A stretch of 64,000 nt of DNA from an uncultured Candidatus Saccharibacteria bacterium. GTDB lineage: Bacteria > Patescibacteriota > Minisyncoccia > Phycocordibacterales > DATGWK01. The notes beneath the pieces are model-generated. The model saw only the letters and a program-made list of their open reading frames with translations, ran no database searches and was not told the origin of the DNA. The translations under genes and the position numbers were made by a program. The stretch is taken from contig CAYHIR010000002.1 in NCBI GenBank assembly GCA_964356815.1, positions 7,418 through 71,417 on the forward strand, written 5' to 3'. This document shows, piece by piece, positions 2,719 through 61,538 of this stretch; positions within the stretch are counted from its first letter, which is position 1; every line of letters starts with the position of its first letter.

Positions 2719-3288
2719 TCAGAGAACGGGCAAAGCTTGGGGATGAAAAACCTTGAGGCCGGCCTCGAACCATCGAGTACGCGGATCGCCGCGTGAGTTC
2801 TTTTCGGGACCGCCGTCTGTAAGAAAAGCATCGATATGCCAATTTCCCTCAGAAAGCGAAACCGTCACACCCCACAGTTGATCATGTCCGTCGAGCAGAT
2901 AGAACAAACCTCCGCCCCAATCACCTCGTCCGCGATTCGACTCAGTGATCAAATAGCAAATGTGCACAAGTTCGCAGTTGATGAAGCACTCATCTGGTTT
3001 TCCCAGCGTGTCACCGGCCACCGCATACAAAATCTCGTAGTCAGCCGCTCCTCTGGTAAGAATACTGCAGTTAAGCAACACTTCGTCCATGATTCCCTGC
3101 AAAACCCCAGATCGATGGAAAGCCAGCTCTTTGAAATTGTCTCCTAGAATGAATGGTCTTTGACCCCACCCATTTCGGGCGAAAAAATCTACAACATTTA
3201 CCATCCTGAGAGATGGACGCAGACTGATCCGACTGGAACTCTCGAGTAGCGGCAACGGCCGCTCGTTTTGAACGACCTCGGTGCTCAT
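2719..3288 (-). CDS. hypothetical protein (GC-rich cassette gene, Cys/His-containing; possible hydrolase)
   Basis: 190-aa ORF with strong SD (AAAGGAG 6 nt before ATG). Putative TTGACA-N17-TAAATA promoter at 3320-3348 and a terminator downstream. GC is well above neighbours. No family recognised. Confidence 0.5.
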   Translation of the reverse strand: MSTEVVQNERPLPLLESSSRISLRPSLRMVNVVDFFARNGWGQRPFILGDNFKELAFHRSGVLQGIMDEVLLNCSILTRGAADYEILYAVAGDTLGKPDECFINCELVHICYLITESNRGRGDWGGGLFYLLDGHDQLWGVTVSLSEGNWHIDAFLTDGGPEKNSRGDPRTRWFEAGLKVFHPQALPVL

Positions 3289-3377
3289 GATGACTCCTTT
3301 CTGTTTTCGTTCTGTCCAATATTTAATCACAAACCGCCACATTGTCAAATATGCCGAAAATGTGTCATAATGAACAA

Positions 3378-3953
3378 ATGTCAGACAAAATGGTCGAGAT
3401 TCTCCAAAAAGACGCGCCTGAGCTTCGTCTCGTGGCCGAGCCGGTCGCTCTTGCCGACATCAAATCGCCAAAAATCGCGGCGATTATTTCGCACATGAAA
3501 AAAGCCCTTCTCGAACAAGACGACGGCGTAGCTATCGCCGCACCACAGATTGGCGAGAGTTTGCGTATTTTTATCGTCGCCAGTCGCGCTTTAAAAATGA
3601 TTGCTGAAGATGAAGGACTTATTGCCCATGATGACACTGGTGGTCTCAATAACACCGACGCAAAATTTTCCGATTTAATTTTCATCAATCCCGAAATAAT
3701 TAAAGCCTCAAAAAAAACGGAATGGATGGAAGAGGGCTGTTTGAGCGTGCGTTATCTTTACGGCAAAGTGAAACGCTCACCGAAGGTGACTGTGAAAGCC
3801 CACGATGAAAACGGCAAAATTTTCACCCGCGGCGCATCTGGCCTGCTCGCTCAAATTTTTCAACACGAAATCGACCATCTCGACGGCACACTCTTTATCG
3901 ACAAAGCCAAAAACATCAAGGAAATTTTGCCAGAAAAACCCGACGCGCTTTAA
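3378..3953 (+). CDS. def: peptide deformylase
   Basis: Carries the three PDF motifs GVAIAAPQIG, EGCLSV and QHEIDHLDG. Confidence 0.9.
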   Translation: MSDKMVEILQKDAPELRLVAEPVALADIKSPKIAAIISHMKKALLEQDDGVAIAAPQIGESLRIFIVASRALKMIAEDEGLIAHDDTGGLNNTDAKFSDLIFINPEIIKASKKTEWMEEGCLSVRYLYGKVKRSPKVTVKAHDENGKIFTRGASGLLAQIFQHEIDHLDGTLFIDKAKNIKEILPEKPDAL

Positions 3954-3972
3954 ATTTGCCGCGATTTTATAA

Positions 3973-4941
3973 ATGAAAAAAATTAATTTCACATTTCTTG
4001 GCTCTTCCCGCTTTTCGCTCATCGTTTTGGAAGCGCTCGAACGCGCAGGCTTTTTGCCAACTCTCATCATTACTGCACCAGACCAAAAGAAAGATCGTGG
4101 GCAGAAAGTTCATTCCACACTCGTAAAAGATTGGGCCGAGGCGCGAAAAATTCCTGTTGAGACTCCGCTCACGCTCAAAAATAATTCTGAAATCGCGGAA
4201 AAACTCGCCGCGGTCAGCACAGCCGACGGAACAAAGCCGCAAGTTTTCGTTACTGCTTCATACGGCAAAATTATTCCCAAAAATATTTTAGACATTCCGA
4301 AACATGGCACATTAAATGTGCACCCCTCCCTTTTGCCAAAATTTCGCGGCCCAAGCCCACTCGAAACTTCGATTCTCGAACTCGGCACAGAAAAAAACGT
4401 TGATAAAAATTTGCCGCGCGGTGCCGACCAAAATCCTGTCACACCCACCGGCGTCACAATCATGCTTACAGATGAAGATATCGACCACGGACCGATCGTT
4501 GCTCAAATAGAAGTTCCGATAGATGGTTGGCCGCCTGTACCGCCATATACAGAACAACTCGAAACAATTCTCGCGCGTGCGGGTGGCAATTTGCTCGCTG
4601 AAATTTTGCCGAAATGGATTGCGGGTGAAATAAAACCGAAGCCGCAAAAACATTCCGAAGCAACATTTACAAAAAAGTTTGAAAAAGCCGACGGACTCGT
4701 TGATCTTTCCGACGACGCCGCAATGAACCTCCGCAAAATCCGCGCTCTTCACCGTTCGCCTGGGACGTATTTCTTTGTTAAGAAGTCCGACGAGAAAATC
4801 GCGGCTAGTGGTGGTGAAAATAATATCCGCATCCGCATAAAAAGCGCCGACATAAAAAACGGTGAATTAATGCTCGACAAAATCGTACCAGAAGGCAAAA
4901 AAGAAATGACTTTTAAAGATTTTTGGCGGGGGTTTAGGTAG
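3973..4941 (+). CDS. fmt: methionyl-tRNA formyltransferase
   Basis: Formyltransferase N-domain with the HPSLLPKFRG motif and a C-terminal Fmt domain. Conserved def-fmt adjacency. Confidence 0.85.
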   Translation: MKKINFTFLGSSRFSLIVLEALERAGFLPTLIITAPDQKKDRGQKVHSTLVKDWAEARKIPVETPLTLKNNSEIAEKLAAVSTADGTKPQVFVTASYGKIIPKNILDIPKHGTLNVHPSLLPKFRGPSPLETSILELGTEKNVDKNLPRGADQNPVTPTGVTIMLTDEDIDHGPIVAQIEVPIDGWPPVPPYTEQLETILARAGGNLLAEILPKWIAGEIKPKPQKHSEATFTKKFEKADGLVDLSDDAAMNLRKIRALHRSPGTYFFVKKSDEKIAASGGENNIRIRIKSADIKNGELMLDKIVPEGKKEMTFKDFWRGFR

Positions 4942-4942
4942 C

Positions 4943-4971
4943 TTGACAGATTTATAAAATCGTGCTAGCAT
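4943..4971 (+). promoter_or_regulatory. sigma70-like promoter TTGACA-N17-TAGCAT
   Basis: Consensus -35 box with 17-nt spacing, upstream of the SD-bearing ORF at 5008. Confidence 0.45.
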
Positions 4972-5007
4972 TGAGACAGCCTGAATAGATAGAAAGGAGC
5001 CGCAAAA

Positions 5008-5370
5008 ATGTGCACGGCAATACTGTCCACGGCCGATTTGCCCGCATACAACGTCGTATGCCGGACATGTAATCATGTCTTTTCACCGGCCCGCAAAAGT
5101 TCTTTGTGGTGGAGAGCGGCGAAGTGCGCCGAAGGAGGTCGACTCAATGCGATGATGATCAGCGGAGAAGAATGCGGATGCGTCAGCACACCCGTCGAAC
5201 CAAATGCTCCCTTCAGACTTTTCGGGTACGATGACCTGTGCAGGCCATTCGACATACCGCTCGCCAGATTCATCGATGCAGTGAGGGGGTTCAAGAAACT
5301 GGAACGTACGGGATGCACGGTCTTCATTTCCGGAATTTCCAAGGAGGTCAGAGACCGAATAGGTGCGTGA
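5008..5370 (+). CDS. hypothetical Cys-rich small protein (GC-rich cassette gene)
   Basis: 120-aa ORF with SD AAAGGAG 8 nt upstream and a TTGACA promoter. About 55% GC. An overlapping minus-strand ORF (5083-5493) has no SD, so strand choice is uncertain. Confidence 0.4.
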   Translation: MCTAILSTADLPAYNVVCRTCNHVFSPARKSSLWWRAAKCAEGGRLNAMMISGEECGCVSTPVEPNAPFRLFGYDDLCRPFDIPLARFIDAVRGFKKLERTGCTVFISGISKEVRDRIGA

Positions 5371-6252: not shown

Positions 6253-6433
6253 GCTTGTGTGATATTTATTAACTGATAATCGATGACTACATTCTAACAG
6301 ATTTTGCACGGATTTAAAAAAGTGGAGGAGGTTAATATTTTGCTTTTTTTGTAAACTGTGTTATTATCCTTTTAGAGCATGGGGGTTGGAAGTTCCAACA
6401 CTCAACCTTGTTTTTTACAGAAGGAGGTCTACT

Positions 6434-6952
6434 GTGCGCATGAATGAGGTTTGTCATCGGATGAATGACGAGAAACTGGATTTCCAAACATTTCTCATCG
6501 GCTGTCTTAGCCACGGTAAGCCTTTCCAAGATGAAGATACATCTGAGATGCTGGCTGTTCTCGAGCGTGATTGGGCACTTAAACAAAAACAATCTCTCGA
6601 GCAGGCTGAGCATGGTGCGCTCTTCGAAATGGCCGTTGAAGAGCTCGAGCAAAAGAAGACCCGGATCAAACGGAGGGTTGATTTGTTTGAAAAGACAATC
6701 AATGACTCGGGCTTGCTGACTGGTGGAAGCATCTTCACAAACGCAATCGAATGTCTAAGGGGCATTCATGGTGTGCAGGGGTTGAAGATAAGTTCAATCG
6801 GGTTCGATTCCGAAAAGTATAGACAACTAAAACTCGAGGAGCTGAAGAAGTTCCTCGGAAAAAGGTGTCGTACTCTTGAAGATGTCTGGCCCCACAGTGA
6901 CGGACCTCGTCAATTTGCTCGCGTGGTATACGAACTGGCACGCACAATCTAG
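6434..6952 (+). CDS. hypothetical protein (GC-rich cassette gene)
   Basis: SD AGAAGGAGG 6 nt before GTG at 6434 (ATG at 6440 is an alternative start). An extended -10 sits upstream and a weak hairpin plus T-run at about 6970-7010. No recognisable family. Confidence 0.45.
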   Translation: MRMNEVCHRMNDEKLDFQTFLIGCLSHGKPFQDEDTSEMLAVLERDWALKQKQSLEQAEHGALFEMAVEELEQKKTRIKRRVDLFEKTINDSGLLTGGSIFTNAIECLRGIHGVQGLKISSIGFDSEKYRQLKLEELKKFLGKRCRTLEDVWPHSDGPRQFARVVYELARTI

Positions 6953-7067
6953 CCAAGAGAAAAGAGAAACTAGCCCACGTGGTCAAACACGGAGGGCTTT
7001 TTTATTAAAGATTTTCAACTTCATCCTGTTCTGCTATACTGCCCATGGTTCTTTCTAGAAACAACAT

Positions 7068-7376
7068 TCCGCGATAGCTCAGCTGGTAGAGCGAGCGACT
7101 GTGAACAAAATCGCAGCTTCCCGAAGTAATTCGGGTTGAAAAACGAGGTTAATTGCTGGAAGCCCACCCGATCGAAAGATCGCGGGTAATCAGCAGCCGA
7201 GCCTGTCATTCGACAGGAAGGTTCAGAGACTATCCCTAACGGGAGTACTTGGCCGAAAGGTCTAGGAAACACCTCGCGCCCCATTTATTGGGGCGATGAT
7301 ATAGTCCATCCCTTTAAGAAATTTTAGGATCGATGTAATCGCTTGGTCGCAGGTTCGAGTCCTGCTCGCGGAGCCA
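7068..7376 (+). tRNA. tRNA-Asn (anticodon GUU) interrupted in the anticodon loop by a group I intron
   Basis: 5' half 7068-7102: acceptor TCCGCGA, D-arm GCTC/AGCTGGTA/GAGC, anticodon stem AGCGA, loop CTGT. 3' half 7336-7376: TAA, TCGCT, variable TGGTC, T-arm GCAGG/TTCGAGT/CCTGC, acceptor TCGCGGA, discriminator G, CCA. The spliced anticodon loop is CUGUUAA. Confidence 0.75.
7103..7335 (+). ncRNA. group I self-splicing intron (233 nt, no ORF)
   Basis: R element GTTCAGAGACTA (7221-7232) and S element GATATAGTCC (7298-7307) form P7. The 5' exon ends in U and can pair with intron GCAG (7113-7116) as P1. The terminal nucleotide is G (omega-G) at 7335. Confidence 0.7.
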
Positions 7377-7380
7377 AAAC

Positions 7381-7478: not shown

Positions 7479-7775
7479 ATGAATATCTCACTCACGGATC
7501 CAAAAACTCTCGTGATCAATGGAGAAGATACTGAGGTCGGAGAAGTCGCACGCGCTGTGGCAATCTTGATGGAAGAAGGAAAGATTCCAAAAGGTTGCAC
7601 ACTGAAGTATGGCGGGTTCTCCGGCAGTGGCGTTGCCCTGTGTGTAGCACTTTGCAACGTGGTCCGTGATTTTTTTGTGGTGTTCCCAGTTTGCGCTGAA
7701 CAACAGCCCGATGGGAAGTACCTCGTTCAGGCAAGTTTCGACCCTACCGTGAAAACCGGTGCGATCATTGACTAA
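7479..7775 (+). CDS. hypothetical small protein (GC-rich cassette gene)
   Basis: 98-aa ORF with SD AAAGGAG 5 nt before ATG. Good promoter upstream and a long hairpin terminator downstream. Confidence 0.45.
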   Translation: MNISLTDPKTLVINGEDTEVGEVARAVAILMEEGKIPKGCTLKYGGFSGSGVALCVALCNVVRDFFVVFPVCAEQQPDGKYLVQASFDPTVKTGAIID

Positions 7776-7776
7776 C

Positions 7777-8525: not shown

Positions 8526-8945
8526 ATGAAAAAAGAAAAAATTGTTTTACTGCTTCTTCGTTTATCAATGGGTTTTATTTTCCTATGGGCGTTTTTTGAT
8601 AAGGTTTTTGGTTTGGGATTTGCCACAACAGCCGAAAAAGCGTGGATCAATGGCGGCTCACCGACTTTTGGTTTTCTCTCCAATGCCGCAAAGGGTCCGT
8701 TTGCGGATATTTTTCACAGTCTCGCTGGCATGCCTGCTGTCGACTGGCTATTTATGCTCGGCCTACTTTTCGTTGGCCTTACACTCATATTCAACAAATT
8801 CGTAAAGTGGGGATGCTTAGCTGGCAGTGTGATGCTCCTTCTTATGTACCTCGCCCTTCTCTTACCCGAAAATAATCCGATCATAGACGATCACCTTGTA
8901 TACATTCTTGTTTTGGCACTTGTGGCTTTTAGAAGCGAGAACTAA
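8526..8945 (+). CDS. DoxX-family membrane protein
   Basis: Four-TM pattern with a DoxX-like N-terminus (LLRLSMGFIFLWAFFDK). Start chosen at MKKEK. Confidence 0.6.
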   Translation: MKKEKIVLLLLRLSMGFIFLWAFFDKVFGLGFATTAEKAWINGGSPTFGFLSNAAKGPFADIFHSLAGMPAVDWLFMLGLLFVGLTLIFNKFVKWGCLAGSVMLLLMYLALLLPENNPIIDDHLVYILVLALVAFRSEN

Positions 8946-10006
8946 TTTCCCTCAAGTGGCCCCGACGAACCACCTCGCCCAGCAATAACCGAGACGCTAA
9001 TACCACTTTCATTTGCCACATACACTTTTTTACCAAAACCAAGCATTGCGAAAGGTTTTGATCCAACACCGAGAGTAGACACAGTATTGCTGTTCAAAGT
9101 ATCGATAACCGACACAGAATCGTCGGCAAGATTGGCGACATAAACCTTAGAGCCAAGTACGGCTATTTCTTTCGGCAGATTACCCACGGGGATAGTAGAG
9201 ACGGCGTTATCACTGGCAGTATCAATAATAGAAATCGTGTCATCGATACTGTTGGTAACATAAACTTTTTTACCCAAAGTAGCTAAAGCAGGACCGTAAA
9301 AAGAGCTCTGACCGACTGTTATAGAAGAAACGGAATAGTTGTTTGCGGGATCGATAATTGAAACAGTGTTACCAACATTGCCCACAAAGACCTTCCCGCC
9401 GAGTGTGGCTAGAGAATGAGGCTTAGTGCCAAGATCTATGCTCGTAACAGCATTGCCGTTGGCGATGTCGATAATAGACACACCACTACTTTCAGCCACA
9501 TAAACCTTTTTACCCACCACGAGTAAATCTTTCGGACCGAAGCCAACTTGAATGTTGGAGGCAGAATTACCATTGGCAGTGTCGATGATAGAAACCACAC
9601 CCTTGCTCTCACTTGCGACATAGACCTTAGAATCGGTGGCTGCTACGGCGTAAGGAAACTGACCAACTGTTACGGAAGTTACAGAGTTGGCATTTGCAGT
9701 ATCAATAACAGACACGGAATTGTCGCCACTGTTTACCACATACACCTTCGATCCGACACTGACCATAGACTGAGGCGCGGCTCCAACATTTACAGTCGAA
9801 ACTGAATTTGCATTGGCAGTGTCGATGACGGATACGGTCGCATCGTCAAAATTGGCTACAAAAACTTTAGAGCCTACGGTTGCAAAAGCTCGGGGTCCTC
9901 CACCCACAGGAATTGTGACCAAAACAGTATCTGCTGAAACTAGATTGGAAAATATACCGAAAAGTATGAGAACGAAGACAGCAATGAAGGGTAGAGATTT
10001 TTTCAT
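8942..10006 (-). CDS. secreted YVTN-family beta-propeller repeat protein
   Basis: Signal peptide followed by about 8 repeats of about 40 aa: VGxxPxxxxxxGSKVYVxNxxDxSVSVIDTANxNxV. Confidence 0.7.
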   Translation of the reverse strand: MKKSLPFIAVFVLILFGIFSNLVSADTVLVTIPVGGGPRAFATVGSKVFVANFDDATVSVIDTANANSVSTVNVGAAPQSMVSVGSKVYVVNSGDNSVSVIDTANANSVTSVTVGQFPYAVAATDSKVYVASESKGVVSIIDTANGNSASNIQVGFGPKDLLVVGKKVYVAESSGVSIIDIANGNAVTSIDLGTKPHSLATLGGKVFVGNVGNTVSIIDPANNYSVSSITVGQSSFYGPALATLGKKVYVTNSIDDTISIIDTASDNAVSTIPVGNLPKEIAVLGSKVYVANLADDSVSVIDTLNSNTVSTLGVGSKPFAMLGFGKKVYVANESGISVSVIAGRGGSSGPLEGN

Positions 10007-10146
10007 AATGAACAGACTGAGTGCAGTTTTTTAAATTATTAATAAAATAAACGACGACAAACGACCATGAACAGAAGTAACAGAATAATTCTAGCAAAAC
10101 CACTTAGAAGAGTATACTCGGCTCATTTCGTGTTATATTTCTAGGA

Positions 10147-11016
10147 ATGGAACCAGCCCAAAAAAATCGCGCCTTGGGTGTCGTCCTGATTGCTATTATT
10201 CTAATCGGTGGCTTTTTCTTCTACCGCACATACACCAAGCTAAGCGACGCTCGAAGCGAGCTCTCCTCTTCAACAGCCGCCGCAGAGGAGTTCCAATTTC
10301 AACTTTCTGAAGCGGGAGAAGAAAACGCTGAGCTTAAAGAATCACTAGAAAATGAGCGCGCTCGAGCCGAAGAGCTTTCGGAGAAATTGTCTGATGCAAC
10401 GGGCGCAATAGATGAATTTGAAAAATTGAGTCGCATCGATCCAGAGCTTCTCCAAAAATATTCCAAGGTCTTCTTTCTAAATGAAAATTACAAACCGGCA
10501 GATCTCCAAGACATAACCACAAAATATTTATACACACCCGCCAAGCCAGCTACGATTCACGATGAGGTTTGGTCGAATCTTCGCCGCCTTCTTGCCCGTG
10601 CCGAAAGAGACAAGGCGCCCTTAAAGGTCGTCTCGGGCTTTCGTTCCTTCGAAGATCAGACCACGCTAAAAGGTAAATACACAACCGTCTACGGTTCTGG
10701 CGCTAATCAGTTTTCCGCCGATCAAGGCTACTCCGAACATCAGCTTGGCACAGCCGTCGACTTTGCTACCGTCGACACTCCACCCGCTGAATTAATTTTT
10801 GAAAATACTGCCGGTTACAAATGGCTCCAGAAAAATGCTCACAATTACGGCTTCGTCCTTTCCTATCCAAAAGGCAATTCGTTCTACCAATTTGAGCCGT
10901 GGCACTGGCGCTTCGTCGGTGTTGACTTAGCTACGGATCTTTACAACGACGAGAAAAATTTCTACGAAATGGATCAGCGTGAGATTGATAAATATTTAAT
11001 TAAGATTTTCGATTAA
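10147..11016 (+). CDS. peptidase M15 (VanY/D-Ala-D-Ala carboxypeptidase family), membrane anchored
   Basis: N-terminal TM plus coiled coil. Motifs SGFRSFEDQ, SEHQLGTAVDF and EPWHWRFVG match zinc D,D-carboxypeptidases. Confidence 0.75.
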   Translation: MEPAQKNRALGVVLIAIILIGGFFFYRTYTKLSDARSELSSSTAAAEEFQFQLSEAGEENAELKESLENERARAEELSEKLSDATGAIDEFEKLSRIDPELLQKYSKVFFLNENYKPADLQDITTKYLYTPAKPATIHDEVWSNLRRLLARAERDKAPLKVVSGFRSFEDQTTLKGKYTTVYGSGANQFSADQGYSEHQLGTAVDFATVDTPPAELIFENTAGYKWLQKNAHNYGFVLSYPKGNSFYQFEPWHWRFVGVDLATDLYNDEKNFYEMDQREIDKYLIKIFD

Positions 11017-11638: not shown

Positions 11639-11743
11639 AAATTGATATTAGCATGAAGCCTACGGTAAAGCGCCTGCCGAAGTGGTATACTTGATACAGA
11701 GTCGTTTTCGTTCTTTTCATCACCCAATACCCTGGAGGGGAAA

Positions 11744-12613
11744 ATGTACACAAGAAAAATCGCAGGTTTAGACCGTGAGCTTCATTGGCCGGCGGTGCTT
11801 GGCCTCGGATTTATTCATGTAGTAGCCCTATGCGCCATCTGGCCAGGCTTCTTTTCGTGGAGTGGTCTGATTATCGCCGTCTTTCTTGGCTGGCTTTCTG
11901 GCTGGCTTGGAATCACACTGTGCTTCCATCGTCTGCTCACCCACCGAAGCTTTGAGACGCCAAAATGGTTTGAATATTTTCTGACCATCTGCGGCACTCT
12001 GGCTTGGCAAGGTGGGCCGATCACTTGGGTCGGCACTCATCGCATTCACCACGCTTATTCCGACGAAGATGGCGACCCTCACTCGCCCCGACACGGACCT
12101 TGGTGGGCACATGTCTTTTGGACCGTCTTCAAGAGACCGATCGGTGCCAGAGATCCGTGGAGCGTTGCCAAAGATCTTTCGGGCGATAAAGGGACTTTCC
12201 TAATCGACCGATTTTTCGGGGCTCCGCAATTCGTTGTGACAATCGCTCTTCTCACCGCCGGTTACTTTCTCTACGGAGCCGAGACAGCACTTTCGTGGTT
12301 CGTTTGGGGTATTGGAGTCCGCACTTTCGTGATCTACCATATCACATGGGCAGTCAATTCGATTTGCCACATGTGGGGCTACAGAAACTTCGAAACCTCT
12401 GACCAGTCACGGAATAATCTACTGGTTGGCATCCTTTCAGCAGGAGAAGGTTTCCACAACAACCATCACCGCGACCAACGCTCCGCGAGACACGGCATGA
12501 AGTGGTGGGAAATTGATGTCACCTGGCTGACGATCAAAATCCTGTCCTTCCTCGGACTTGCTTGGAACATCAAACAACCCAACTCCGAGACGCTCACAAA
12601 ACTCGCCGGATAA
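11744..12613 (+). CDS. acyl-CoA/acyl-lipid delta-9 fatty acid desaturase (membrane, three His boxes)
   Basis: His boxes HRLLTH, HRIHHAYSD and HNNHHRD. SD GGAGGGG upstream. About 52% GC. Terminator at about 12640-12672. Confidence 0.75.
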   Translation: MYTRKIAGLDRELHWPAVLGLGFIHVVALCAIWPGFFSWSGLIIAVFLGWLSGWLGITLCFHRLLTHRSFETPKWFEYFLTICGTLAWQGGPITWVGTHRIHHAYSDEDGDPHSPRHGPWWAHVFWTVFKRPIGARDPWSVAKDLSGDKGTFLIDRFFGAPQFVVTIALLTAGYFLYGAETALSWFVWGIGVRTFVIYHITWAVNSICHMWGYRNFETSDQSRNNLLVGILSAGEGFHNNHHRDQRSARHGMKWWEIDVTWLTIKILSFLGLAWNIKQPNSETLTKLAG

Positions 12614-12715
12614 AAACTAAAAAACGCCAACACAGACAACAAAGAGCCGCCCACGGGCTCTTTTTTCATGCATTTTTAGCACATTTTCTTGTGCACAGGC
12701 GTAGCTTGTGCGGGC

Positions 12716-12823: not shown

Positions 12824-13327
12824 ATGATGAGCGGAGCTCATGGACAGATCTACCCCAGAGATTTCGGGGAGCTCGATGAAGACGACAGCGTGGGATTTTT
12901 CATGGAGCATGAGGGTGCTGTTTGCTCAATTGCGAAGGTCTTCTGGTTCTCATTCGCCGCCATCGCCCTCTGTCTCGGTCTCCTCCTCATGGCACAGAGG
13001 CCCACTGATCCAAACGGCCCAATGAGCTGGCAAGATGGCCAATTCTTCGTGGTCAACCGAAGCTTCGGAGACCTTCATGTTCTCAGGATCAACCGACTCT
13101 ACCGAGTCGTGGGAACTGATCAGGACAACAGCCTGCGCGTTGAATACATGTACGGGCCGTGGCCACTTAATAAGGAAAGGCGTGAGAGCACGCTTTCAGC
13201 CAAGTGGCTCAAAGAGAACGTGCGACGGTCAGACTGTACTGTGGTGAACGGGAGCGACCGCAAATACACCGAGCAGATAGCGGAGCTCACGGGTGTAATC
13301 AAAAACGCCGCTCTCGCTGGCAGATAA
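12824..13327 (+). CDS. hypothetical membrane-anchored protein (GC-rich cassette gene)
   Basis: SD AGGAGG 7 nt before ATG. One TM segment. Terminator downstream. Confidence 0.45.
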   Translation: MMSGAHGQIYPRDFGELDEDDSVGFFMEHEGAVCSIAKVFWFSFAAIALCLGLLLMAQRPTDPNGPMSWQDGQFFVVNRSFGDLHVLRINRLYRVVGTDQDNSLRVEYMYGPWPLNKERRESTLSAKWLKENVRRSDCTVVNGSDRKYTEQIAELTGVIKNAALAGR

Positions 13328-27770: not shown

Positions 27771-27800
27771 CGCCGCGACTCACACTCGCGGCGTTTTCAT
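27771..27800 (+). terminator. rho-independent terminator
   Basis: CGCCGCGA-ctcaca-CTCGCGGCG followed by TTTTCATTT. Confidence 0.6.
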
Positions 27801-27858
27801 TTGCAAAAATTATCTCCCCACTCCGAAATAAATAGTTTTGAGTAAGTATAAGAAATTA

Positions 27859-27968: not shown

Positions 27969-27973
27969 TATTA

Positions 27974-38130: not shown

Positions 38131-38456
38131 GATTAATTATTTAGCGATTGATAAGTTCTAAACCGACGGTCAGACCGGCAAACGCACCGGCAAAAACAAC
38201 AAATTTCGCACAAACAAACAAAAACACGCCCTATCCACAATAGGGGCTTGTTAACCTCTTAAATATTTATCTATTAAAATGGGACAAAATACCGAAAGGA
38301 TTAAAACGCCTTGCTAATCCTTCATTTTCTAGCCGTAACTCAATCGTATTTGAAGTATCGCGATTATAGTCGACTATCAATTTTCTGTCAAGAAGGGTTA
38401 AAGGAGGGTGTGGGGATAGCCCAGTTTGCTATATGTCTCGAAATGACCATGGCGAG

Positions 38457-39107
38457 CTAACCCCTCCTCCACCCCTCTATCCTCTTATGATCCCCCGATA
38501 GCAAAACTTTCGGCACATTATATTTTTTTCCTTTATAAACGAGCTTTTCCGGGCGCGTATACACATCCGAGCTGGCGGCGCGCGACTCTTCAATAGACTC
38601 GGCATTGCCGAGGACTTCTGGCACTTGGCGGGCGACAGCATCTAAGATAATCATGGCTGGCAATTCCCCACCAGTGAGCACGAATGGGCCAACAGAAATT
38701 TCTTCAGCGCGGAAAATTTTTCTCACGCGAGCGTCGACACCTTCATAACGACCGCAGATGATAATTATGTCTGTGAATTTTTTAGAAAATTGCGAGGCGA
38801 CTTCGTTTGTAAATTGTTTGCCGGACGGCGAGAGAAAGACGATCTTCGGCTTCTTTTTAGATTTTTTGGCTGCAGTGCCGAGGGCTTTTTCAATTGCCTT
38901 AATAATCGGCTCGGCACGCATCACTCGGCCGGGGCCGCCGCCGTAGGGTTTGTCGTCGGCACGCTTGGCAGAACCTTTCGGCTCAAAATCTTTTGGATCG
39001 TAAAATTTGACCGCGATTTTTTTGTCTTCTATCGCACGCTTAATAATCGACTCGCCGAGGTATGAGTCAAATGATTTTGGGAAAAGGGTGATTATATGAA
39101 AAATCAT
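38457..39107 (-). CDS. trmD: tRNA (guanine37-N1)-methyltransferase
   Basis: SPOUT/TrmD motifs (ICGRYEGVDARV, GGELPAMII). Short form of 216 aa. Confidence 0.8.
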   Translation of the reverse strand: MIFHIITLFPKSFDSYLGESIIKRAIEDKKIAVKFYDPKDFEPKGSAKRADDKPYGGGPGRVMRAEPIIKAIEKALGTAAKKSKKKPKIVFLSPSGKQFTNEVASQFSKKFTDIIIICGRYEGVDARVRKIFRAEEISVGPFVLTGGELPAMIILDAVARQVPEVLGNAESIEESRAASSDVYTRPEKLVYKGKKYNVPKVLLSGDHKRIEGWRRG

Positions 39108-39127
39108 TTTGGTTTTTTCGTTTGTAA

Positions 39128-39197
39128 ATAATGTATCGAAAAATGACTACGCAGGCCGAAAAGGCCGAGGACTAGGAAATTTCACCAGAAATTTCCG
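39128..39197. repeat. 70-bp palindromic repeat core (copy 2 of 2), without outer TIRs
   Basis: 69 of 70 nt identical to 27879-27948. Lies between trmD and the upstream KH-domain gene. Confidence 0.6.
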
Positions 39198-39233
39198 GTC
39201 ATTTTGAGATATTTTATTTACAAACGAAACTAA

Positions 39234-39545
39234 CTAAAGCTTGAGATCCGCCATCGCCTCATCTACCGTCTTCGAAGCCTTAACACCCTTTGTACTACCT
39301 TCAGGTTCGTTGATTTTTAGATTGACACGAGCGTTGTTTTTCATACCGACGACTCGGAGAAGGGTGCGGACGGCCTTTGCGGTGTTGCCTTCGCGACCGA
39401 TGACTTTGCCCATGTCGGCGGAGTGGACATCGAGGGTGAGGAGAACGCCCATTTCGTCTACCGTGCGCTGAATCTTGACATCATTTGGATTATCTACTAG
39501 AGATTTGATTACAAATTCCAAAAACTGTGCGTCGTTTTCCATCAT
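39234..39545 (-). CDS. KH-domain RNA-binding protein (YlqC/UPF0109 family)
   Basis: VIGREGNTAKAVRTLL KH motif. Lies between rpsP and trmD as in many bacteria. Confidence 0.75.
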   Translation of the reverse strand: MMENDAQFLEFVIKSLVDNPNDVKIQRTVDEMGVLLTLDVHSADMGKVIGREGNTAKAVRTLLRVVGMKNNARVNLKINEPEGSTKGVKASKTVDEAMADLKL

Positions 39546-45887: not shown

Positions 45888-45916
45888 TTGACAGAAAGAA
45901 TTTCATATGCTAGGAT
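45888..45916 (+). promoter_or_regulatory. sigma70-like promoter TTGACA-N17-TAGGAT
   Basis: Consensus -35 box and spacing, upstream of the SD-bearing ORF at 45989. Confidence 0.45.
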
Positions 45917-45988
45917 GGATTGGGATTTATTGAGCCATTTTGGTTCAAAATCTGCACATTCCAAACTTCAAACAAAGGGAGATAGGAC

Positions 45989-46516
45989 ATGAATCGCATG
46001 AACCTCGATAGAATGTATCAGATTCTTCAGGAAACCACTGTTCAGCTTCGAAAGGGCGAGGAAATCGAGGGCGACCCGAAACTCGTCGGTGCCGTCAAAA
46101 ACCTCAAAGAGGGCGACGACATCAGCAAACTCCCCGGCGGCGTGGTGCACATCTACGCCATGCCGCACGAGGCAGAAGCGAAGAATGGTGTTGAGAAAGT
46201 GGATTGCCACTTCATCATCATCGGTGTGGACAAAGCCAAAGCGAAGACGCACAAGGACGAACTCGTTGCCATCCTAAAGGACTGGCCCTCGGAAGCACAC
46301 GGTAGCACCATTCCAAAACTGTCGGAGGGTCCGAGCTACATCCATGTCGGTGGTGCGATCGGAAGCCAAGGGGCGGCGTTCCAGTTGTTCGCTCTCGGTA
46401 AGGTTCTCGGTCTCTGGGACATCATCACACCCGCAAAGCTCGGTATCACCGGACCTAATGCGGATCGGATGGCTGGTTCAGGATTCGTGATGATCGACGG
46501 TTTCAAGGCAGCATGA
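45989..46516 (+). CDS. hypothetical protein (GC-rich cassette gene)
   Basis: SD AAGGGAGA upstream. About 56% GC. Strong terminator downstream. No recognised family. Confidence 0.45.
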   Translation: MNRMNLDRMYQILQETTVQLRKGEEIEGDPKLVGAVKNLKEGDDISKLPGGVVHIYAMPHEAEAKNGVEKVDCHFIIIGVDKAKAKTHKDELVAILKDWPSEAHGSTIPKLSEGPSYIHVGGAIGSQGAAFQLFALGKVLGLWDIITPAKLGITGPNADRMAGSGFVMIDGFKAA

Positions 46517-46545
46517 CTCATCTTTCTGTTCTATAAATCAACCAT

Positions 46546-46583
46546 AGGCGCACGACTCTCGAGTATGTGCGCCTTTTATTTTG
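46546..46583. terminator. rho-independent terminator (bidirectional, between convergent genes)
   Basis: AGGCGCAC-loop-GTGCGCCT followed by TTTTATTTT. Confidence 0.65.
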
Positions 46584-49643: not shown

Positions 49644-50543
49644 CTATTTTTTCAATAAAATATTTATAGCTTTTGTAACGATCGGTAAAATGTCGTTGTA
49701 AAAATTGAGATCGAGAATGTCGGCGAGCTTAAACCACTTTGCGTCGTCGAGACCACCGTTGCCTTCTTCGAGCTTTAGATCTGTGAACTTTGCTTCGGCG
49801 AGGAAATACATAACGTGCTTTTTCTTTTTGCCAGTTTCAGGATGAAACGCAATGTATTCGTTTTCGCCGAGTTTTTCCTTTATCTCCACATCGAGACCAA
49901 TCTCCTGCTTAAGCTCACGCTTGGTACCGGCATCATCGGCCTCCCCTGGCTCAATATGGCCCTTAGAAAGCGTCCAGTGGCCGAAAACGTCGTGAACGAG
50001 CGCTAGATAAATGTCGCCCTCGTGGTGAGCATATACGATAGCGCCGCCCAATTTTTCCACCGGAAGCTGATCATCGGGCACGTCTTTAAATTTCTTTTTT
50101 TTTGAGACTTCGTTTTTGCCCGGCTCGCCCATTTCCTTATAAACAGCACCGAGCACGCCGTTTACAAACTTACTACTCGTGTCGCCACCAAAAGTTTTTG
50201 CAAGCTCGATAGCTTCGTTGATGGCAACCTTCGGCGGCACTTCTTTATGGTCGGCAAAAATGAGTTCGTACAAGCCGAGTCGAAGAATATTTCGATCAAC
50301 GACAGAAATTTTTTCTAGTGGCCACTCAGGAGCGGCTTTGACAATAATATTGTCTAGATCGGGCTTTTTGCGAAAAACCTGACGCATCAGATTTTCCATA
50401 AAAGAAAAATCGTTCATTCCAGGAGCGAATTCCTGGACGTTTCGAGAAAAAATCTCCATAGCCTCGGCTTCAGTTTTGACGTTGAAGTCGGCTTCGAAAA
50501 GTGATTGTACAACTATAGATCTTGCAAGGTGTCTATTTGCCAT
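49644..50543 (-). CDS. nusB: NusB-like antitermination domain fused to a C-terminal NUDIX hydrolase domain
   Basis: N-terminal 140 aa are NusB-like (ARSIVVQSLFEADF...FVNGVLGAVYKEM). C-terminal domain has the Nudix box GHIEPGEADDAGTKRELKQEIGL. Confidence 0.7.
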   Translation of the reverse strand: MANRHLARSIVVQSLFEADFNVKTEAEAMEIFSRNVQEFAPGMNDFSFMENLMRQVFRKKPDLDNIIVKAAPEWPLEKISVVDRNILRLGLYELIFADHKEVPPKVAINEAIELAKTFGGDTSSKFVNGVLGAVYKEMGEPGKNEVSKKKKFKDVPDDQLPVEKLGGAIVYAHHEGDIYLALVHDVFGHWTLSKGHIEPGEADDAGTKRELKQEIGLDVEIKEKLGENEYIAFHPETGKKKKHVMYFLAEAKFTDLKLEEGNGGLDDAKWFKLADILDLNFYNDILPIVTKAINILLKK

Positions 50544-50610
50544 CGGCTATTTGAGTATATTTTTTTGACAAGAAACCGAGCGCTTTCCCCTTTTTGGCTT
50601 AGGCTCTCGG

Positions 50611-50838
50611 CTACGCCCTAACCTTGGCCTTCTCCTTAACCTTTTTGGCCTTTTTAGCGAGCTTGGCGGCCATATCTATGACCTTTTTACCCCTATACAT
50701 GCCGCAATTTAAGCAAACCGCATGAGGGAGCTTTGAGGCTTTGCAATTTGTACATGTCAAAAACTGACCAGCCTTTAAAGCGTGATGGGATCGGCGGTTG
50801 CCGGTATGGGATCTAGTTGAACGCATTCTGACTACCAT
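50611..50838 (-). CDS. rpmF: 50S ribosomal protein L32 with lysine-rich C-terminal tail
   Basis: RSTRSHTGNRRSHHAL plus the CxxC...CxxC zinc ribbon. Confidence 0.75.
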   Translation of the reverse strand: MVVRMRSTRSHTGNRRSHHALKAGQFLTCTNCKASKLPHAVCLNCGMYRGKKVIDMAAKLAKKAKKVKEKAKVRA

Positions 50839-50887
50839 GGGTTGGATTGTACACGATTATTTAATAAAGACAATGCTCACAGCAGAA

Positions 50888-51000
50888 AGTATGACTGAAG
50901 TAACCGGCGTAGATTTCTACTGAAATCTCGCCTCACTCGGAGCCGCCTACGCGGCTTCCGAGAGTTACTTCAGTCATACTTTCTGCTGTGGCCACTAGTT
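50888..51000. repeat. 113-bp nested palindrome: 27-bp perfect inverted repeats enclosing two internal hairpins
   Basis: Arms CACAGCAGAAAGTATGACTGAAGTAAC / GTTACTTCAGTCATACTTTCTGCTGTG. Internal AGATTTC/GAAATCT and CTCGGAGCCGC/GCGGCTTCCGAG hairpins. Confidence 0.6.
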
Positions 51001-51053
51001 ATTAAAATAATTGTTAAAAAACTGGCAAGAAAAAACTCCCTGGGTCCACGGAC

Positions 51054-51377
51054 TCAGGGAGCTTGGTTCAAATTGCACAGGAGACCTTGGCCACTGTGGC
51101 GTTGGTCGAACAGGTGAAGCTTCGGGGGAGCTCTGGACCGGCGTGGAGAGAAAATGCGAGTTGACAACACACGGCTCCTACTCATTGAGAGTTTGGAGCT
51201 CTCACTCTCACGGTTAGGAAATTGCCATTCAGCAACCCCCTTTCCGCCGTAAGAGTATCGCAGCAAGGGACAGAACGCCCAATCTTCAGTGATGTATCCC
51301 GCCACTGCCCCAGGAGCAACGAAAATGAGGCAGATTGCCGGAAACAATGCATCGACGATGCCAGATGTATCGATCAC
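51054..51377 (-). CDS. hypothetical small protein with hydrophobic N-terminus (GC-rich cassette gene)
   Basis: GTG start preceded by AAAGGAGGAAGG. TTGACA-N16-TAAATT promoter overlaps the rnhB 3' end. About 56% GC. Confidence 0.35.
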   Translation of the reverse strand: MIDTSGIVDALFPAICLIFVAPGAVAGYITEDWAFCPLLRYSYGGKGVAEWQFPNRESESSKLSMSRSRVLSTRIFSPRRSRAPPKLHLFDQRHSGQGLLCNLNQAP

Positions 51378-51478
51378 AACCTTCCTCCTTTCTGTGTCTG
51401 AGGTTAATGGTCAAGATGACGACAGAAAACGCTAGAGAACGCGCCTAGTAAAGAAATTTACTCCAAAAGATTTTTCTG

Positions 51479-52123
51479 TCAAGTAAAATTTTTCACAAAA
51501 CTCCTCCGATGCAAATCGCAGAGGCCATTTTCGCGGATTTTTTTAATATGAAAACTGGTGCCATAACCCTTGTGTTTTTCAAAACCAAACTCGGGATAAA
51601 TTTTGGCGAGCTTGCACATTTTTCTGTCGCGCAAAACTTTGGCCGCGATGGAAGCCAAAGAAATTATTGGTTCGAGTCGGTCACCGCCGCTAATTGTTTC
51701 TTGAAATAAAAAATATTCGGGCGCTTTGAGGCCGCCGTCAAGCAGAATAAGTGTCTGACTCGGATTAAGATTGAGCCTGTCGAGAGCACGACGCATGGCG
51801 AGAGAGATGGAATGAGTCAGACCGTGAGTGTCAACTTTTTCTGCGCCAACAAATGCCACGCGAAAATCGAGCAGACCATCGCGCTGACCAATGCGAATTT
51901 TTTTAAACCATTCGTCGCGAGCATCTGGTGAAAGTTGTTTTGAATCGCGAGCTTGACGGAAATTTTTGGGCAATTTACCCACCGCAAAAACCATCGCGCC
52001 AACTGCAACCGGCCCTGCGAGTGGACCACGGCCAACTTCATCGACACCAACGATGTATTTGATTTGACTTGGCTTTTGTGTTTTAAAAATGAGGCGCATA
52101 CGATTAGTGTATAATTTTATCAT
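51479..52123 (-). CDS. rnhB: ribonuclease HII
   Basis: VGVDEVGRGPLAGPV active-site motif. Confidence 0.85.
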   Translation of the reverse strand: MIKLYTNRMRLIFKTQKPSQIKYIVGVDEVGRGPLAGPVAVGAMVFAVGKLPKNFRQARDSKQLSPDARDEWFKKIRIGQRDGLLDFRVAFVGAEKVDTHGLTHSISLAMRRALDRLNLNPSQTLILLDGGLKAPEYFLFQETISGGDRLEPIISLASIAAKVLRDRKMCKLAKIYPEFGFEKHKGYGTSFHIKKIRENGLCDLHRRSFVKNFT

Positions 52124-57987: not shown

Positions 57988-58236
57988 TCACTCGATTTCT
58001 TTGATGATGACGTACACGACCCTACTCATTTCCGGCTTGGCGACTTGGGCCACCCTCACTTTTTCGCCCCTGTGGTAGAGATGATAGATTCCCCCAAGAG
58101 TCACCTTCATACCCGGTTGAAAATACTGGAGTTGAATAAGGTGATCACTAGCAGGATCCTGCCTCACAAAAACCCTGAGCTCCTTGCCAATCACAACCAC
58201 AGAACCACTACCTAGATTTGCATGAACAATGCCCAT
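57988..58236 (-). CDS. hypothetical small protein, paralog of 58549-58812 (GC-rich cassette gene)
   Basis: SD AAAGGAGAAAG 7 nt before ATG. C-terminal half aligns with the neighbour: PGMKVTLGG...RGEKVRVAQVAKPEMSRVVYVIIKEIE. Confidence 0.5.
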   Translation of the reverse strand: MGIVHANLGSGSVVVIGKELRVFVRQDPASDHLIQLQYFQPGMKVTLGGIYHLYHRGEKVRVAQVAKPEMSRVVYVIIKEIE

Positions 58237-58325
58237 CGTTCGCTTTCTCCTTTCATTTTAGATGGTTTCGATACACCCTCAACACATCTAATCTTATAAA
58301 AACAAAATAGTCAATAATTTTGGGC

Positions 58326-58372
58326 AAAAAAAAGCCCCCGAGACCAAAAATCGCGTTAGGCGTTCTCGGGGG
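58326..58372 (-). terminator. rho-independent terminator (minus strand) between the two paralog genes
   Basis: CCCCCGAGA-20 nt-TCTCGGGGG. On the minus strand it is followed by TTTTTTTT. Confidence 0.55.
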
Positions 58373-58548
58373 ACTTTGAGGGTCACAAGTAAAAATAATT
58401 GCGAAAGGGATAAACGGACACCTCCCGAAGAGCCATGCCCTTGCACTCTCCGAGAGGGTCCGCCACAGAAGGAAGGACTTATTACACTCCTGTTTACAGT
58501 TTATACGAGAGTTGAACCATCTGTCAACAAAAGCTTGGGGTGACACTC

Positions 58549-58812
58549 TCACTCAAGATCGTCAACGATCACAAAACTTGCCTGCGGCATCGCAGGAGCA
58601 ATGATCTGAGCAACTTTTCTCGTTGAGCCATCGCAGTGCTCTGTTCTGGATTCTCCAAGAGTGACCTGAGTACCCCACGGAATCAGACCATGATAAGAAA
58701 GTCCCTTTCTACTTCCCCCCCCTTCGCTTCTTCTAAAAAATCTGGCATCCTTGGTGAGCTTGAACACTGGCCCTTCTTTCTTTGGCTTTCGATACTTTTT
58801 CCTAGCACCCAT
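58549..58812 (-). CDS. hypothetical basic small protein, paralog of 57988-58236 (GC-rich cassette gene)
   Basis: SD AAGGAGAAAAC before ATG (MGARKKY). C-terminus WGTQVTLGE...STRKVAQIIAPAMPQASFVIVDDLE. Upstream the TGTGATTAAATAT motif is shared with the 2719-3288 gene. Confidence 0.5.
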   Translation of the reverse strand: MGARKKYRKPKKEGPVFKLTKDARFFRRSEGGGSRKGLSYHGLIPWGTQVTLGESRTEHCDGSTRKVAQIIAPAMPQASFVIVDDLE

Positions 58813-61089: not shown

Positions 61090-61246
61090 TTATATAAGAT
61101 TTATGAGGATTTGCAACACTTTTAGAACACTTATTGTAGCAAAATTACCCCCTTAAAACAAGCTCAAAACAGACCCCTTTATACACAATAATAAGCCCCA
61201 TTTTGGGCCTTTTTTCGGCTTTTATCAATTTAAATCGATTTCATGC

Positions 61247-61275
61247 TTGACAGAATATACATAGTATGATATGAT
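61247..61275 (+). promoter_or_regulatory. strong sigma70-like promoter TTGACA-N17-TATGAT
   Basis: Perfect -35 box, 17-nt spacer, 5/6 -10 match. About 80 nt upstream of the SD-preceded small ORF. Confidence 0.6.
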
Positions 61276-61356
61276 TAAAGCAGAAGAAGTTTGGTTTGTC
61301 TAGCACAGCGTTTGTGCAAGACACTCCGAACAAGGCTCCACAGAAGGAGTTTGTCC

Positions 61357-61467
61357 ATGTATTACGACTCATTCACCGGCCTCTACTTCAACCCCACCAC
61401 CGGAATGGTCTTCACCGCCGCCGAGATCATCGGCTTCGCCTCGGGCGACGGCGAGTGGGGCAGGTAA
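61357..61467 (+). CDS. 36-aa small ORF (possible leader peptide or small protein)
   Basis: SD GAAGGAG 7 nt before ATG. Sequence MYYDSFTGLYFNPTTGMVFTAAEIIGFASGDGEWGR. About 60% GC. Terminator 35 nt downstream; pheS starts at 61583. Confidence 0.35.
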   Translation: MYYDSFTGLYFNPTTGMVFTAAEIIGFASGDGEWGR

Positions 61468-61502
61468 GCCCAACCGCCCGACAACATGGGGAAGAAGAGA
61501 TT

Positions 61503-61538
61503 AGACCACGCTACTTTGTACGGCGTGGTCTTCTTTTT
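61503..61538 (+). terminator. rho-independent terminator just upstream of pheS
   Basis: AGACCACGC-tactttgtacg-GCGTGGTCT followed by TCTTTTTG. Confidence 0.6.

Follow-up and report, generated by a model that had tools for sequence, protein, structure and literature searches.

Introduction

Phage morons, in the definition of Juhala and Hendrix, are single extra genes, usually of unknown function, that carry their own sigma-70 promoter and factor-independent terminator. Their composition is unlike that of the flanking genes, and they are located between genes that are adjacent or otherwise separated in related genomes. We describe here twelve units of similar design, termed C1–C12 in order of occurrence, in a 64-kb stretch of DNA (the window) which is chromosomal DNA of a Parcubacteria (Patescibacteria/candidate phyla radiation, CPR) bacterium. 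The open reading frame (ORF) of each unit is preceded by a strong Shine-Dalgarno (SD) sequence, whereas the core genes around them display no such SD. These cassettes are probably moron-like accessory units with a fast turnover, gained and replaced by horizontal transfer in a core of leaderless or SD-free genes. They resemble morons in that they are single genes with their own promoter and terminator, a deviant composition and variable slots. They differ in that they lie among housekeeping genes of a CPR chromosome, twelve of them within 64 kb, are SD-led beside leaderless neighbours and are GC-richer than the host. Since they are located outside of any phage, they are not members of the moron category.

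Integron cassettes and genomic islands are also small mobile accessory units of atypical composition. Integron cassettes, however, are promoterless, carry attC sites and are arrayed beside an integrase; the units described here bear promoters and are dispersed singly, and neither a repeat family common to their ends nor an integrase was found in the window. A genomic island comprises several contiguous genes together with an integrase and is often found at a tRNA gene, whereas the present units are dispersed single genes of which only C4 adjoins a tRNA gene, again with no integrase found. With respect to translation, genomes rich in leaderless genes (GeneMarkS-2 group C, i.e. Actinobacteria and Deinococcus; D. 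deserti is an example, PMC4007540) have a −10 box a few nucleotides (nt) before the starts of genes that are first in their operons, as does the window. Leadered and operon-internal genes normally bear an SD in those genomes, however, while internal core genes of the window do not, and in the window only an accessory class of distinct composition uses SDs. SD-poor Bacteroidetes and Parcubacteria that lack the anti-SD (PMC9297842) likewise have core genes without an SD and keep a few strong SDs. The SD-bearing genes of the window differ from these in being accessory ORFans and apparent imports, not autoregulated ribosomal genes, and the evidence in this organism points to a working anti-SD. The literature library that was searched has nothing that links “leaderless” with Parcubacteria, and the co-mentions with Patescibacteria concern other subjects.

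Shine-Dalgarno sequences, promoters and terminators

By exact sequence match the window is part of a 110-kb contig (Hain_H41_01um_R2_150), sampled from groundwater at Hainich in well H41 on the 0.1-µm filter. NCBI labels the proteins of this contig “Patescibacteria group bacterium”, and the closest relatives of the GyrB sequence carry the labels Parcubacteria, Zambryskibacteria or Minisyncoccia. The gene table has 60 genes, i.e. the public gene calls plus 12 ORFs that were flagged in an earlier sequence-only reading of the same DNA; 48 of the genes are non-cassette genes. The core set used in codon analysis has 49 genes, among them rpmF, rpoBC, rpoD, gyrB, dnaE and the genes for aminoacyl-tRNA synthetases, other ribosomal proteins and type IV pili.

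The 12 flagged ORFs are all open where that reading had placed them, and each has the strong AGGAG-type SD that was ascribed to it (AGGAG, GGAGG or GGGAG), at 5–10 nt before the start codon. The free energy (dG) of the SD duplex ranges from −8.2 to −12.9 in the 12 cassettes and is never below −5.6 in the other 48 genes, calculated with the canonical anti-SD ACCUCCUUU. The two groups do not overlap (Mann-Whitney U = 0, p = 1e-7). Housekeeping genes had been said to be without an SD and this extends to the whole set, none of the 48 non-cassette genes being at the cassette level of dG; core genes just beyond the window are also SD-free. A scan of every intergenic combination of an SD and a start codon in the whole window gave no further convincing unit, thus the list of 12 is essentially complete.

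Near-consensus promoters were likewise found, with TTGAC(A/T/G) present 30–130 nt upstream of nine of the 12 ORFs where 5% is expected per gene (p = 7e-10). A hairpin followed by a T-run is located at the end of 11 cassettes, the exception being C11. As in morons, a single gene is thereby placed between its own upstream promoter and its own downstream intrinsic terminator. The 5′ untranslated region (UTR) is estimated at about 20–75 nt, with the choice of promoter uncertain for C1, C10 and C11, and some of these regions are structured. Generic promoter and terminator scans across the window are not enriched over shuffled sequences and therefore cannot by themselves support the existence of cassettes; the best matches of the promoter scan include the promoters of C2, C4, C8, C9 and C12.

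Start regions of the core genes

The core genes show a different arrangement. A −10 box with at least five of six matches lies 5–9 nt before the start codon in 13 of 31 core genes that are first in their unit, compared with 2% of all ATG trinucleotides and none of the 12 cassettes. These boxes are TATAAT-like, often TG-extended, and directly precede the ATG. This position is the signature of leaderless mRNAs, and many core genes appear to be transcribed in leaderless form, going by their predicted transcription starts. Operon-internal core genes (fmt, rpoC, dnaG, rpoD) have A-rich spacers and no SD, and none of the 17 such genes has a dG of −6 or lower. The genes of the window fall into two sharply separated classes with respect to SD, promoter position, codon usage and GC content. 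The sequence-only reading had offered a class with a distinct mode of initiation as its alternative, and as a description this is correct: the core is leaderless or SD-free, and only the 12 cassettes are SD-led.

Two core genes may be noted individually. The rpmF gene (bL32, 75 aa, positions 50611–50838, minus strand) is missing from the public gene calls; it appears to be leaderless because a TACAAT box was found 8 nt before its ATG in a scan of spacers. rpoB has a perfect TTGACA-17-TATAAT promoter at positions 38363–38391 (minus strand; the middle figure is the spacer in nt), about 225 nt upstream, and so has a long leader and still no SD. In the window rpoB does not have rplKAJL as neighbours.

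Base composition and codon usage

The GC content of the cassettes is 0.476–0.604 (mean 0.523), and that of the other genes is 0.37–0.54 (mean 0.446). At third codon positions (GC3) the values are 0.59 for cassettes and 0.44 for the core (p about 1e-5). The direction of this contrast is as first described, but its size is about 8 points and not 10–15, and C3, C10 and C11, at 47.6–48.2% GC, are within the core range. The size of the GC contrast is the part of the sequence-only reading that did not stand; the SDs, promoters, terminators and absence of known families did.

Synonymous codon usage alone, analyzed by a leave-one-out log-likelihood ratio (LLR), separates all 12 cassettes (LLR above +0.06) from all 49 core genes (below 0). 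The flagged ORFs are therefore compositional outliers, more sharply so by codon LLR than by GC; C11, for example, displays the cassette dialect despite a GC3 of only 0.43. As with morons, the composition of the cassettes is distinct from that of the flanking genes (in GC, GC3 and codon LLR), with the three cassettes named above overlapping the core in GC. In the cassette dialect AGA and AGG make up 41% of Arg codons (13% in the core) and CTG usage is 23% (5% in the core). GGA/GGG, ATC/TTC/TAC and the G-ending codons of Gln, Lys and Glu are also preferred, and the cassette proteins are richer in Trp and Cys. The core genes nearest to this dialect are rpmF, hpf, an ABC-transporter substrate-binding protein gene, a KH-domain protein gene and rpsP. 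Simple translational selection was considered as the cause of the high GC3 and was rejected, as the RNA polymerase genes and, largely, the ribosomal-protein group differ from the cassettes in AGR, GGR and CTG usage.

Related loci and turnover at fixed slots

The split between gene classes in SD and GC3 recurs in six related loci (L032, L034, L036 and L135–L137). In L032, which has 55% GC, the genes holA, rpsT, uvrB, ruvA and femAB have no SD, whereas a run of hypothetical genes shows SD dG values of −8.6 to −12.4 and GC3 of 0.64–0.88. SD-led genes exceed their neighbours in GC3, CTG and NNG in all six loci, and in ATC in five.

Three of these loci are syntenic sister contigs found by way of GyrB, i.e. 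L135, L136 and L137, with 85%, 82% and 78% GyrB identity, respectively. Identity is 73–76% for ThrS, 64% for DnaE and 78% for NusB. The core gene order GT-orf262-pheS-gyrB-thrS-dnaE-rnhB-nusB is kept in the sister contigs. A search with fmt gave only relatives of at most 41% identity, which are uninformative for synteny.

The sequence-only reading had proposed a comparison of sister genomes for presence or absence, and this reveals that the core genes are constant and the slots between them are not. Between gyrB and thrS the window has C11, a unit without an ORF, and C10. At the same location L135 has an IS605-family TnpB gene (SD dG −11.8), L136 an unrelated gene of 131 aa (−12.5) and L137 an unrelated gene of 94 aa (−7.4). 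The slot between thrS and dnaE contains an SD-less NYN gene in the window and two SD-led genes each in L136 and L137; L135 does not cover it. Between rnhB and nusB, a slot covered by L137 and not by L135 or L136, the window has C9 and L137 an unrelated 234-aa gene. Homologues of C9, C10 and C11 were not found in the three sister loci, and a Pfam search of the SD-led slot occupants of those loci gave no family. Turnover at the slots of C9–C11 is evident from this comparison, and it is in slots differently occupied in related genomes (tested for C9–C12 only) that the cassettes again resemble morons. The TnpB gene of L135 (positions 9177–10445, HTH_OrfB_IS605) combines its strong SD with a GC content above that of its neighbours.

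Transfer of the C8 cassette

C8 (positions 45888–46582, plus strand) has a 175-codon ORF at 45989–46516, a TTGACA-17-TAGGAT promoter with TG, a leader with a 5′UTR hairpin plus the motif CACATTCC, the SD AAGGGAGA and a terminator. It occupies the entire gap between the convergent rnr gene and an SMC-like gene. More than 343 homologues were found, almost all from Patescibacteria metagenome-assembled genomes. C8 has a different genomic context in each genome, even where its identity is 80%. The DNA common to otherwise unrelated loci is the cassette alone, a stretch of about 0.9 kb that begins with the −35 box and ends with the terminator. The GC content of the gene is 0.55–0.63 (GC3 0.65–0.84) in host contexts with GC values of 0.33, 0.42, 0.46 and 0.55; distant homologues are matched in GC to their own contigs.

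The C8 protein is 75–77% identical in contigs whose def, fmt and DsbA products are 33–47% identical, with four-fold sites of the latter genes at chance. Synonymous codon identity among the CPR copies of C8 is 0.52–0.82 where 0.43–0.55 is expected, while in distant homologues the observed and expected values are the same. The test controls for amino-acid-specific codon bias, which shrinks the excess, but the excess remains. Conservation with unsaturated synonymous sites, next to core genes that have diverged, shows that C8 was exchanged among Patescibacteria after the divergence of the genomes, and by these sequence comparisons the cassette has been transferred horizontally. A relative of 41% identity is located in a prophage recombination module, beside a RecE/YqaJ exonuclease gene. 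The AlphaFold2 model has a pLDDT of 94.5 and displays only a weak winged-helix similarity.

The leaders of the C8 homologues (window positions 45917–45988; L033, L036, L040 and L043) keep a stem-loop, then the CACATTCC motif and then the SD. Seemingly compensatory changes are present in the stem (CCACGA/TCGTGG, CGCGA/TCGCG and TTGAGCC/GGTTCAA). The leaders of C7 and C8 share a GCACATTC motif, which was considered as a common signal and was discarded, as its five matches in the window compare with 2.5 expected and are not significant.

The C12 unit upstream of gyrB

C12 (positions 61247–61548, plus strand) has a 36-codon ORF at 61357–61467 with a GC3 of 0.89, a TTGACA-17-TATGAT promoter with TG, and a terminator. 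The promoter score is 12.5, on a scale of the 12 hexamer positions plus bonuses for TG and spacer. The unit is found upstream of gyrB in all four related genomes (the window and L135–L137) with a similar promoter, CTTGACA...TATGAT. The ORFs of this type have 35–43 codons, and the peptides are barely alignable between genomes. The leader, of about 75 nt (positions 61280–61356 in the window), has two hairpins in the four genomes, first a long one and then a CUCC-loop-GGAG hairpin in which the SD is masked. This second hairpin suggests a translational switch.

Homology and coding status of the other cassettes

Ten cassette proteins, i.e. all but C5 and C12, match no Pfam, PHROG or PADLOC family, in agreement with the first impression that they belong to no recognisable family. 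C2 shows nothing in Pfam beyond a sub-threshold zinc-ribbon match. C1 is an ORFan, as it matched only itself among 1.84e9 representative proteins. Scans of viral contigs with C1, C6 and C7 gave no real relatives; two matches to C6 cover its membrane segment only.

C5 encodes an acyl-CoA/lipid delta-9 desaturase and displays the PF00487 domain, as do all of its 7751 homologues. The nearest named homologues, at 52–57% identity, are from Phycisphaerae/Planctomycetota and Acidobacteriota, and no other Patescibacteria are found among the top 120 matches.

Public gene callers miss C9 and C12, and they assign C10 to one strand or the other depending on the assembly. Coding status of these three is uncertain, being predicted from promoter, SD, terminator and codon usage only. 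Rfam searches of the whole window, with sensitive scans of 50500–51500 and 58240–58560, gave nothing at C9 or C12.

Evidence for a functional anti-SD

No 16S gene is present in the window or in any of the related loci that were fetched. Three properties of the sequences nevertheless argue indirectly for a working anti-SD in this organism, i.e. the conservation of the C8 SD, the SD-sequestering hairpins of C12 and a depletion of SD-like sequences inside core genes. Eleven diverged C8 leaders, with a mean identity of 45% per column, retain the AAGGAGA core. Core coding regions contain about 25% fewer SD-like 5-mers than synonymous shuffles do (157 vs 209, z = −3.5), and per kb these 5-mers are 2.3-fold rarer there than in the cassettes.

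Organization of the individual cassettes

The genes that adjoin the flagged ORFs are def-fmt, hpf, type IV pilus genes, hisS, a UvrD-family helicase-nuclease gene, rpoD-dnaG-rpoC-rpoB, trmD, rpsP, rnr, rnc, a nusB-NUDIX fusion, rnhB, dnaE, thrS, gyrB and pheS.

C1 (2665–3348, minus strand) has a 189-codon ORF at 2719–3288 and a GC content of 0.512. The promoter, TTGACA-16-TTAAAT with a TG extension, is followed by a 5′UTR, the SD AAAGGAGT (dG −8.5) and, after the ORF, the terminator GGCCCCGC...GCGGGGTT plus seven T. C2 (4943–5428, plus strand) encodes a Cys-rich sequence of 120 codons at 5008–5370, with GC of 0.540 and GC3 of 0.595; it has a TTGACA-17-TAGCAT promoter with TG, the SD AAAGGAGC and a long-loop terminator. 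The C3 unit (6339–7015, plus strand) has a 172-codon ORF at 6434–6952 that starts with GTG, where public callers choose the ATG at 6440. Its promoter has an extended −10 element, TGTGTTATTAT, and a weak −35 box; the SD is GAAGGAGG (dG −12.9), a terminator is present and GC is 0.476, within the core range.

C4 (7381–7830, plus strand) is located directly 3′ of an intron-containing tRNA gene and is the sole cassette that abuts a tRNA gene. A TTGACT-17-TATCAT promoter with TG and the SD AAAGGAGT precede its 98-codon ORF (7479–7775), and a terminator follows. The C5 desaturase unit (11680–12666, plus strand; ORF 11744–12613, GC 0.524) has an extended −10 element, TGGTATACT, the SD CTGGAGGGG and a terminator at 12641–12666. 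C6 (12716–13382, plus strand) has a 167-codon ORF at 12824–13327 with one predicted membrane helix and a GC3 of 0.643, a TTGACG-17-TAGTAT promoter, the SD CAGGAGG and a terminator. The ORF of C7 (27029–27797, plus strand), 208 codons at 27122–27748 with a GC3 of 0.665, encodes a multi-pass membrane protein; the promoter is TTGACT-16-TACACT with TG, the SD is AAGGAGA and the terminator is at 27771–27797.

C9 (51030–51482, minus strand) has a 107-codon ORF at 51054–51377 with a GTG start, a TTGACA-16-TAAATT promoter, the SD AAAGGAGG and a terminator that overlaps the stop codon. C10 (57921–58314, minus strand), with an 82-codon ORF at 57988–58236, a TTGACT-17-TTAGAT promoter, the SD AAAGGAGA and a strong terminator, is a paralogue of C11 (30% identity, E-value = 3e-7). 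C11 (58549–58870, minus strand) has an 87-codon ORF at 58549–58812, a TGGACT-16-TTAAAT promoter and the SD AAGGAGA, and lacks a terminator of its own. A 13-mer, TGTGATTAAATAT, around the −10 box is common to the promoters of C1 and C11 (3310–3348 and 58841–58870, both on the minus strand).

Between C11 and C10 lies the unit without an ORF (58326–58527, minus strand). It has a TTGACA-18-TAAACT promoter, a GC-rich body of about 170 nt that looks structured and the terminator CCCCCGAGA...TCTCGGGGG plus eight T. It is a candidate small RNA with the architecture of a cassette, and it has no Rfam match in either the whole-window search or the sensitive scan of 58240–58560.

Other sequence features

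The tRNA gene upstream of C4 (7068–7376, plus strand) is split in the anticodon loop by a group I intron at about 7093–7328 (Rfam RF00028, 70.9 bits). The 5′ exon is TCCGCGATAGCTCAGCTGGTAGAGCGAGCGACTGT and the 3′ exon ends in GGTTCGAGTCCTGCTCGCGGAGCCA. ARAGORN gave no tRNA at this position. The anticodon is probably GUU (Asn), a reading of the splice junction that is uncertain.

A palindromic element of 115–130 nt, similar to a miniature inverted-repeat transposable element (MITE), is present in two copies, at 27857–27970 between C7 and rpoD and at 39107–39238 between trmD and the KH-domain gene. Their cores of 76 nt have 96% identity and are each located within an inverted repeat of 32–41 nt. 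Another inverted repeat, of 27 bp, perfect and with 59 nt between its arms, is located at 50878–50990, between the C9 terminator and the rpmF promoter, and has no Rfam match. Five diverged DNA repeats of about 53 nt, mostly spaced at 120 nt, are found at 9135–9835 inside orf354 (8942–10006, minus strand). The orf354 product would accordingly contain repeats of about 40 residues, and it shows no Pfam family.

The phenylalanyl-tRNA synthetase of the window (PheRS, 61583–62734, plus strand) is a single chain of 383 aa with tRNA-synt_2d and FDX-ACB domains, i.e. of the monomeric type. It is 30–33% identical to the sister pheS products, and its gene is in the opposite orientation. L135 (3093–6338) and L136 (2475–5672) have separate pheS and pheT genes, and L137 has a 400-aa form with a weak FDX-ACB match. 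It looks as if the type of PheRS has been replaced within the family.

Discussion

We propose that the 12 ORFs and the ORF-less unit are autonomous one-gene transcription units, from a sigma-70 promoter to an intrinsic terminator, and that each was placed by itself in a gap between core genes that are conserved. Donors may be other Patescibacteria, phages and GC-richer bacteria that use SDs. Inserted amid leaderless neighbours, a gene would receive neither read-through transcription nor a 5′-terminal AUG, so it would be expressed only when it brings its own promoter and SD. Its translation would proceed by canonical SD:anti-SD pairing in 30S initiation, for which the ribosome must keep a functional anti-SD, and its terminator would insulate the neighbouring genes. 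Transcription starts and SD-dependent initiation of the cassettes are here predicted from their signals. The sequence-only reading had suggested repeated acquisition of foreign units. In favor of this are the transfer of C8, the foreign affinity of C5, the turnover at the slots of C9–C11 and the ORFan status of C1; the conservation in place of C12 does not fit. For the remaining cassettes we infer a foreign origin from the shared architecture and codon dialect.

Several observations weigh against such an origin or limit its reach. Horizontal transfer is demonstrated for C8 only, and the foreign affinity of C5 is indicated by the taxonomy of its matches. None of the cassettes in the window has an integrase gene, a transposase gene or a target-site duplication at its borders. 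One codon dialect is common to all 12, while many unrelated donors predict differing usage. Of the five core genes nearest to the dialect, four have roles linked to translation and are presumably expressed at a high level, a hint that expression may play a part. Mobile and imported DNA is reportedly AT-richer than its host as a rule and not GC-richer, a view attributed to Rocha and Danchin in 2002. GC3 of the C12 type is 0.81–0.89 in four genomes although core GC3 varies from 0.31 to 0.58. Because the C12 unit is conserved in place and inherited vertically, its GC3 is no relic of import, and for at least this unit GC-richness would come from selection or another process and not from recent import. 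With respect to the anti-SD, the CCTCCT motif was detected in only 48% of Parcubacteria 16S sequences (Tsurumaki 2022, PMC9297842), and the value of internal SD depletion as an indicator is disputed (PMC6107199).

Some of these points would be expected if the cassettes were a native, vertically inherited class in which strong or regulated translation selects promoters, SDs and C/G-ending codons, with GC content as a by-product. We consider this rather doubtful. It agrees with the near-consensus promoters, the common dialect and the syntenic C12, whose GC3 is high regardless of the core and whose conserved SD-masking hairpin suggests regulation. The genes for L32, S16, HPF and the KH-domain protein are near the dialect as well and share its preference for ATC and AAG/GAG. 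CTG, AGR and GGR usage sets the cassettes apart from RNA polymerase and ribosomal protein genes, however, and Arg and Gly codon use in the cassettes is flatter than in the core, not more focused. C9–C11 are absent from syntenic sisters, which have unrelated genes instead, C1 has no homologue anywhere and the nearest named relatives of C5 are outside of the CPR. C8, in addition, is non-syntenic even at 80% identity, far exceeds core genes in conservation and is not saturated at synonymous sites. It is also conceivable, but unlikely, that initiation is two-tiered, i.e. that core genes are leaderless or SD-independent and avoid SDs, while small mobile or fast-evolving genes depend on SDs and have their own G/C-ending dialect even when vertically inherited. 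The dialect would then be selected with the class and would not be a relic of the donor, and the cell could tune its entire accessory set through anti-SD availability or 30S versus 70S initiation.

Mobile DNA is active in the lineage, as indicated by the group I intron, the MITE-like repeats and the IS605 TnpB of a sister, and the C8 family includes prophage members. The cassettes could accordingly be seen as leftovers of one or more degraded prophages or of a dispersed island, scattered by rearrangement. This is very unlikely, as no phage structural, integrase or recombinase gene is present within the 64 kb and a PHROG search with ten cassette proteins, which left out the core genes, gave no match. 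The cassettes are single genes between conserved core genes in an order that the sisters keep, and promoter and terminator are intact on each cassette, which is unexpected for decay. An extremely unlikely explanation is that several units do not encode proteins; they would be small RNAs with structure, or ORFs that arise spuriously in DNA of higher GC, and their SD-like motifs would have another function in the RNA. The failure of public pipelines to call C9 and C12, the calling of C10 on either strand, the ORF-less unit of the same promoter and terminator design, the long antisense ORFs that overlap most cassettes and the poor alignment of C12-type peptides among sisters could be read in this way. 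On the other hand, the SD is 5–10 nt from a start codon in all 12, the codon dialect is frame-specific and no Rfam family is matched. GC3 is far above GC1 and GC2 (first and second codon positions) in C12, C7, C8 and C6, which indicates a constraint in phase with translation, and C8 and C5 are conserved at the protein level, C8 also with its high-confidence model.

Accessory cassettes that are acquired and exchanged as complete units thus remain the probable explanation. CPR/Patescibacteria are a large part of bacterial diversity, and the majority of their genes are uncharacterised. In the window, SD, own promoter and terminator, and codon dialect together separated accessory from core genes, and the split in SD and GC3 recurs in the six related loci. 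If this rule holds genome-wide, it would provide a cheap map of the flexible genome and better gene calling; standard pipelines overlooked C9, C12 and rpmF and put C10 on the wrong strand. The C8 family and the C12-type leaders are conserved and merit functional study. According to these results, whole expression units, among them a gene family with prophage relatives, have moved horizontally among Patescibacteria. In addition, a lineage that is often reported to be without an anti-SD apparently uses SD pairing for a minority class of genes, so that the part played by the anti-SD in reduced ribosomes becomes open to testing.

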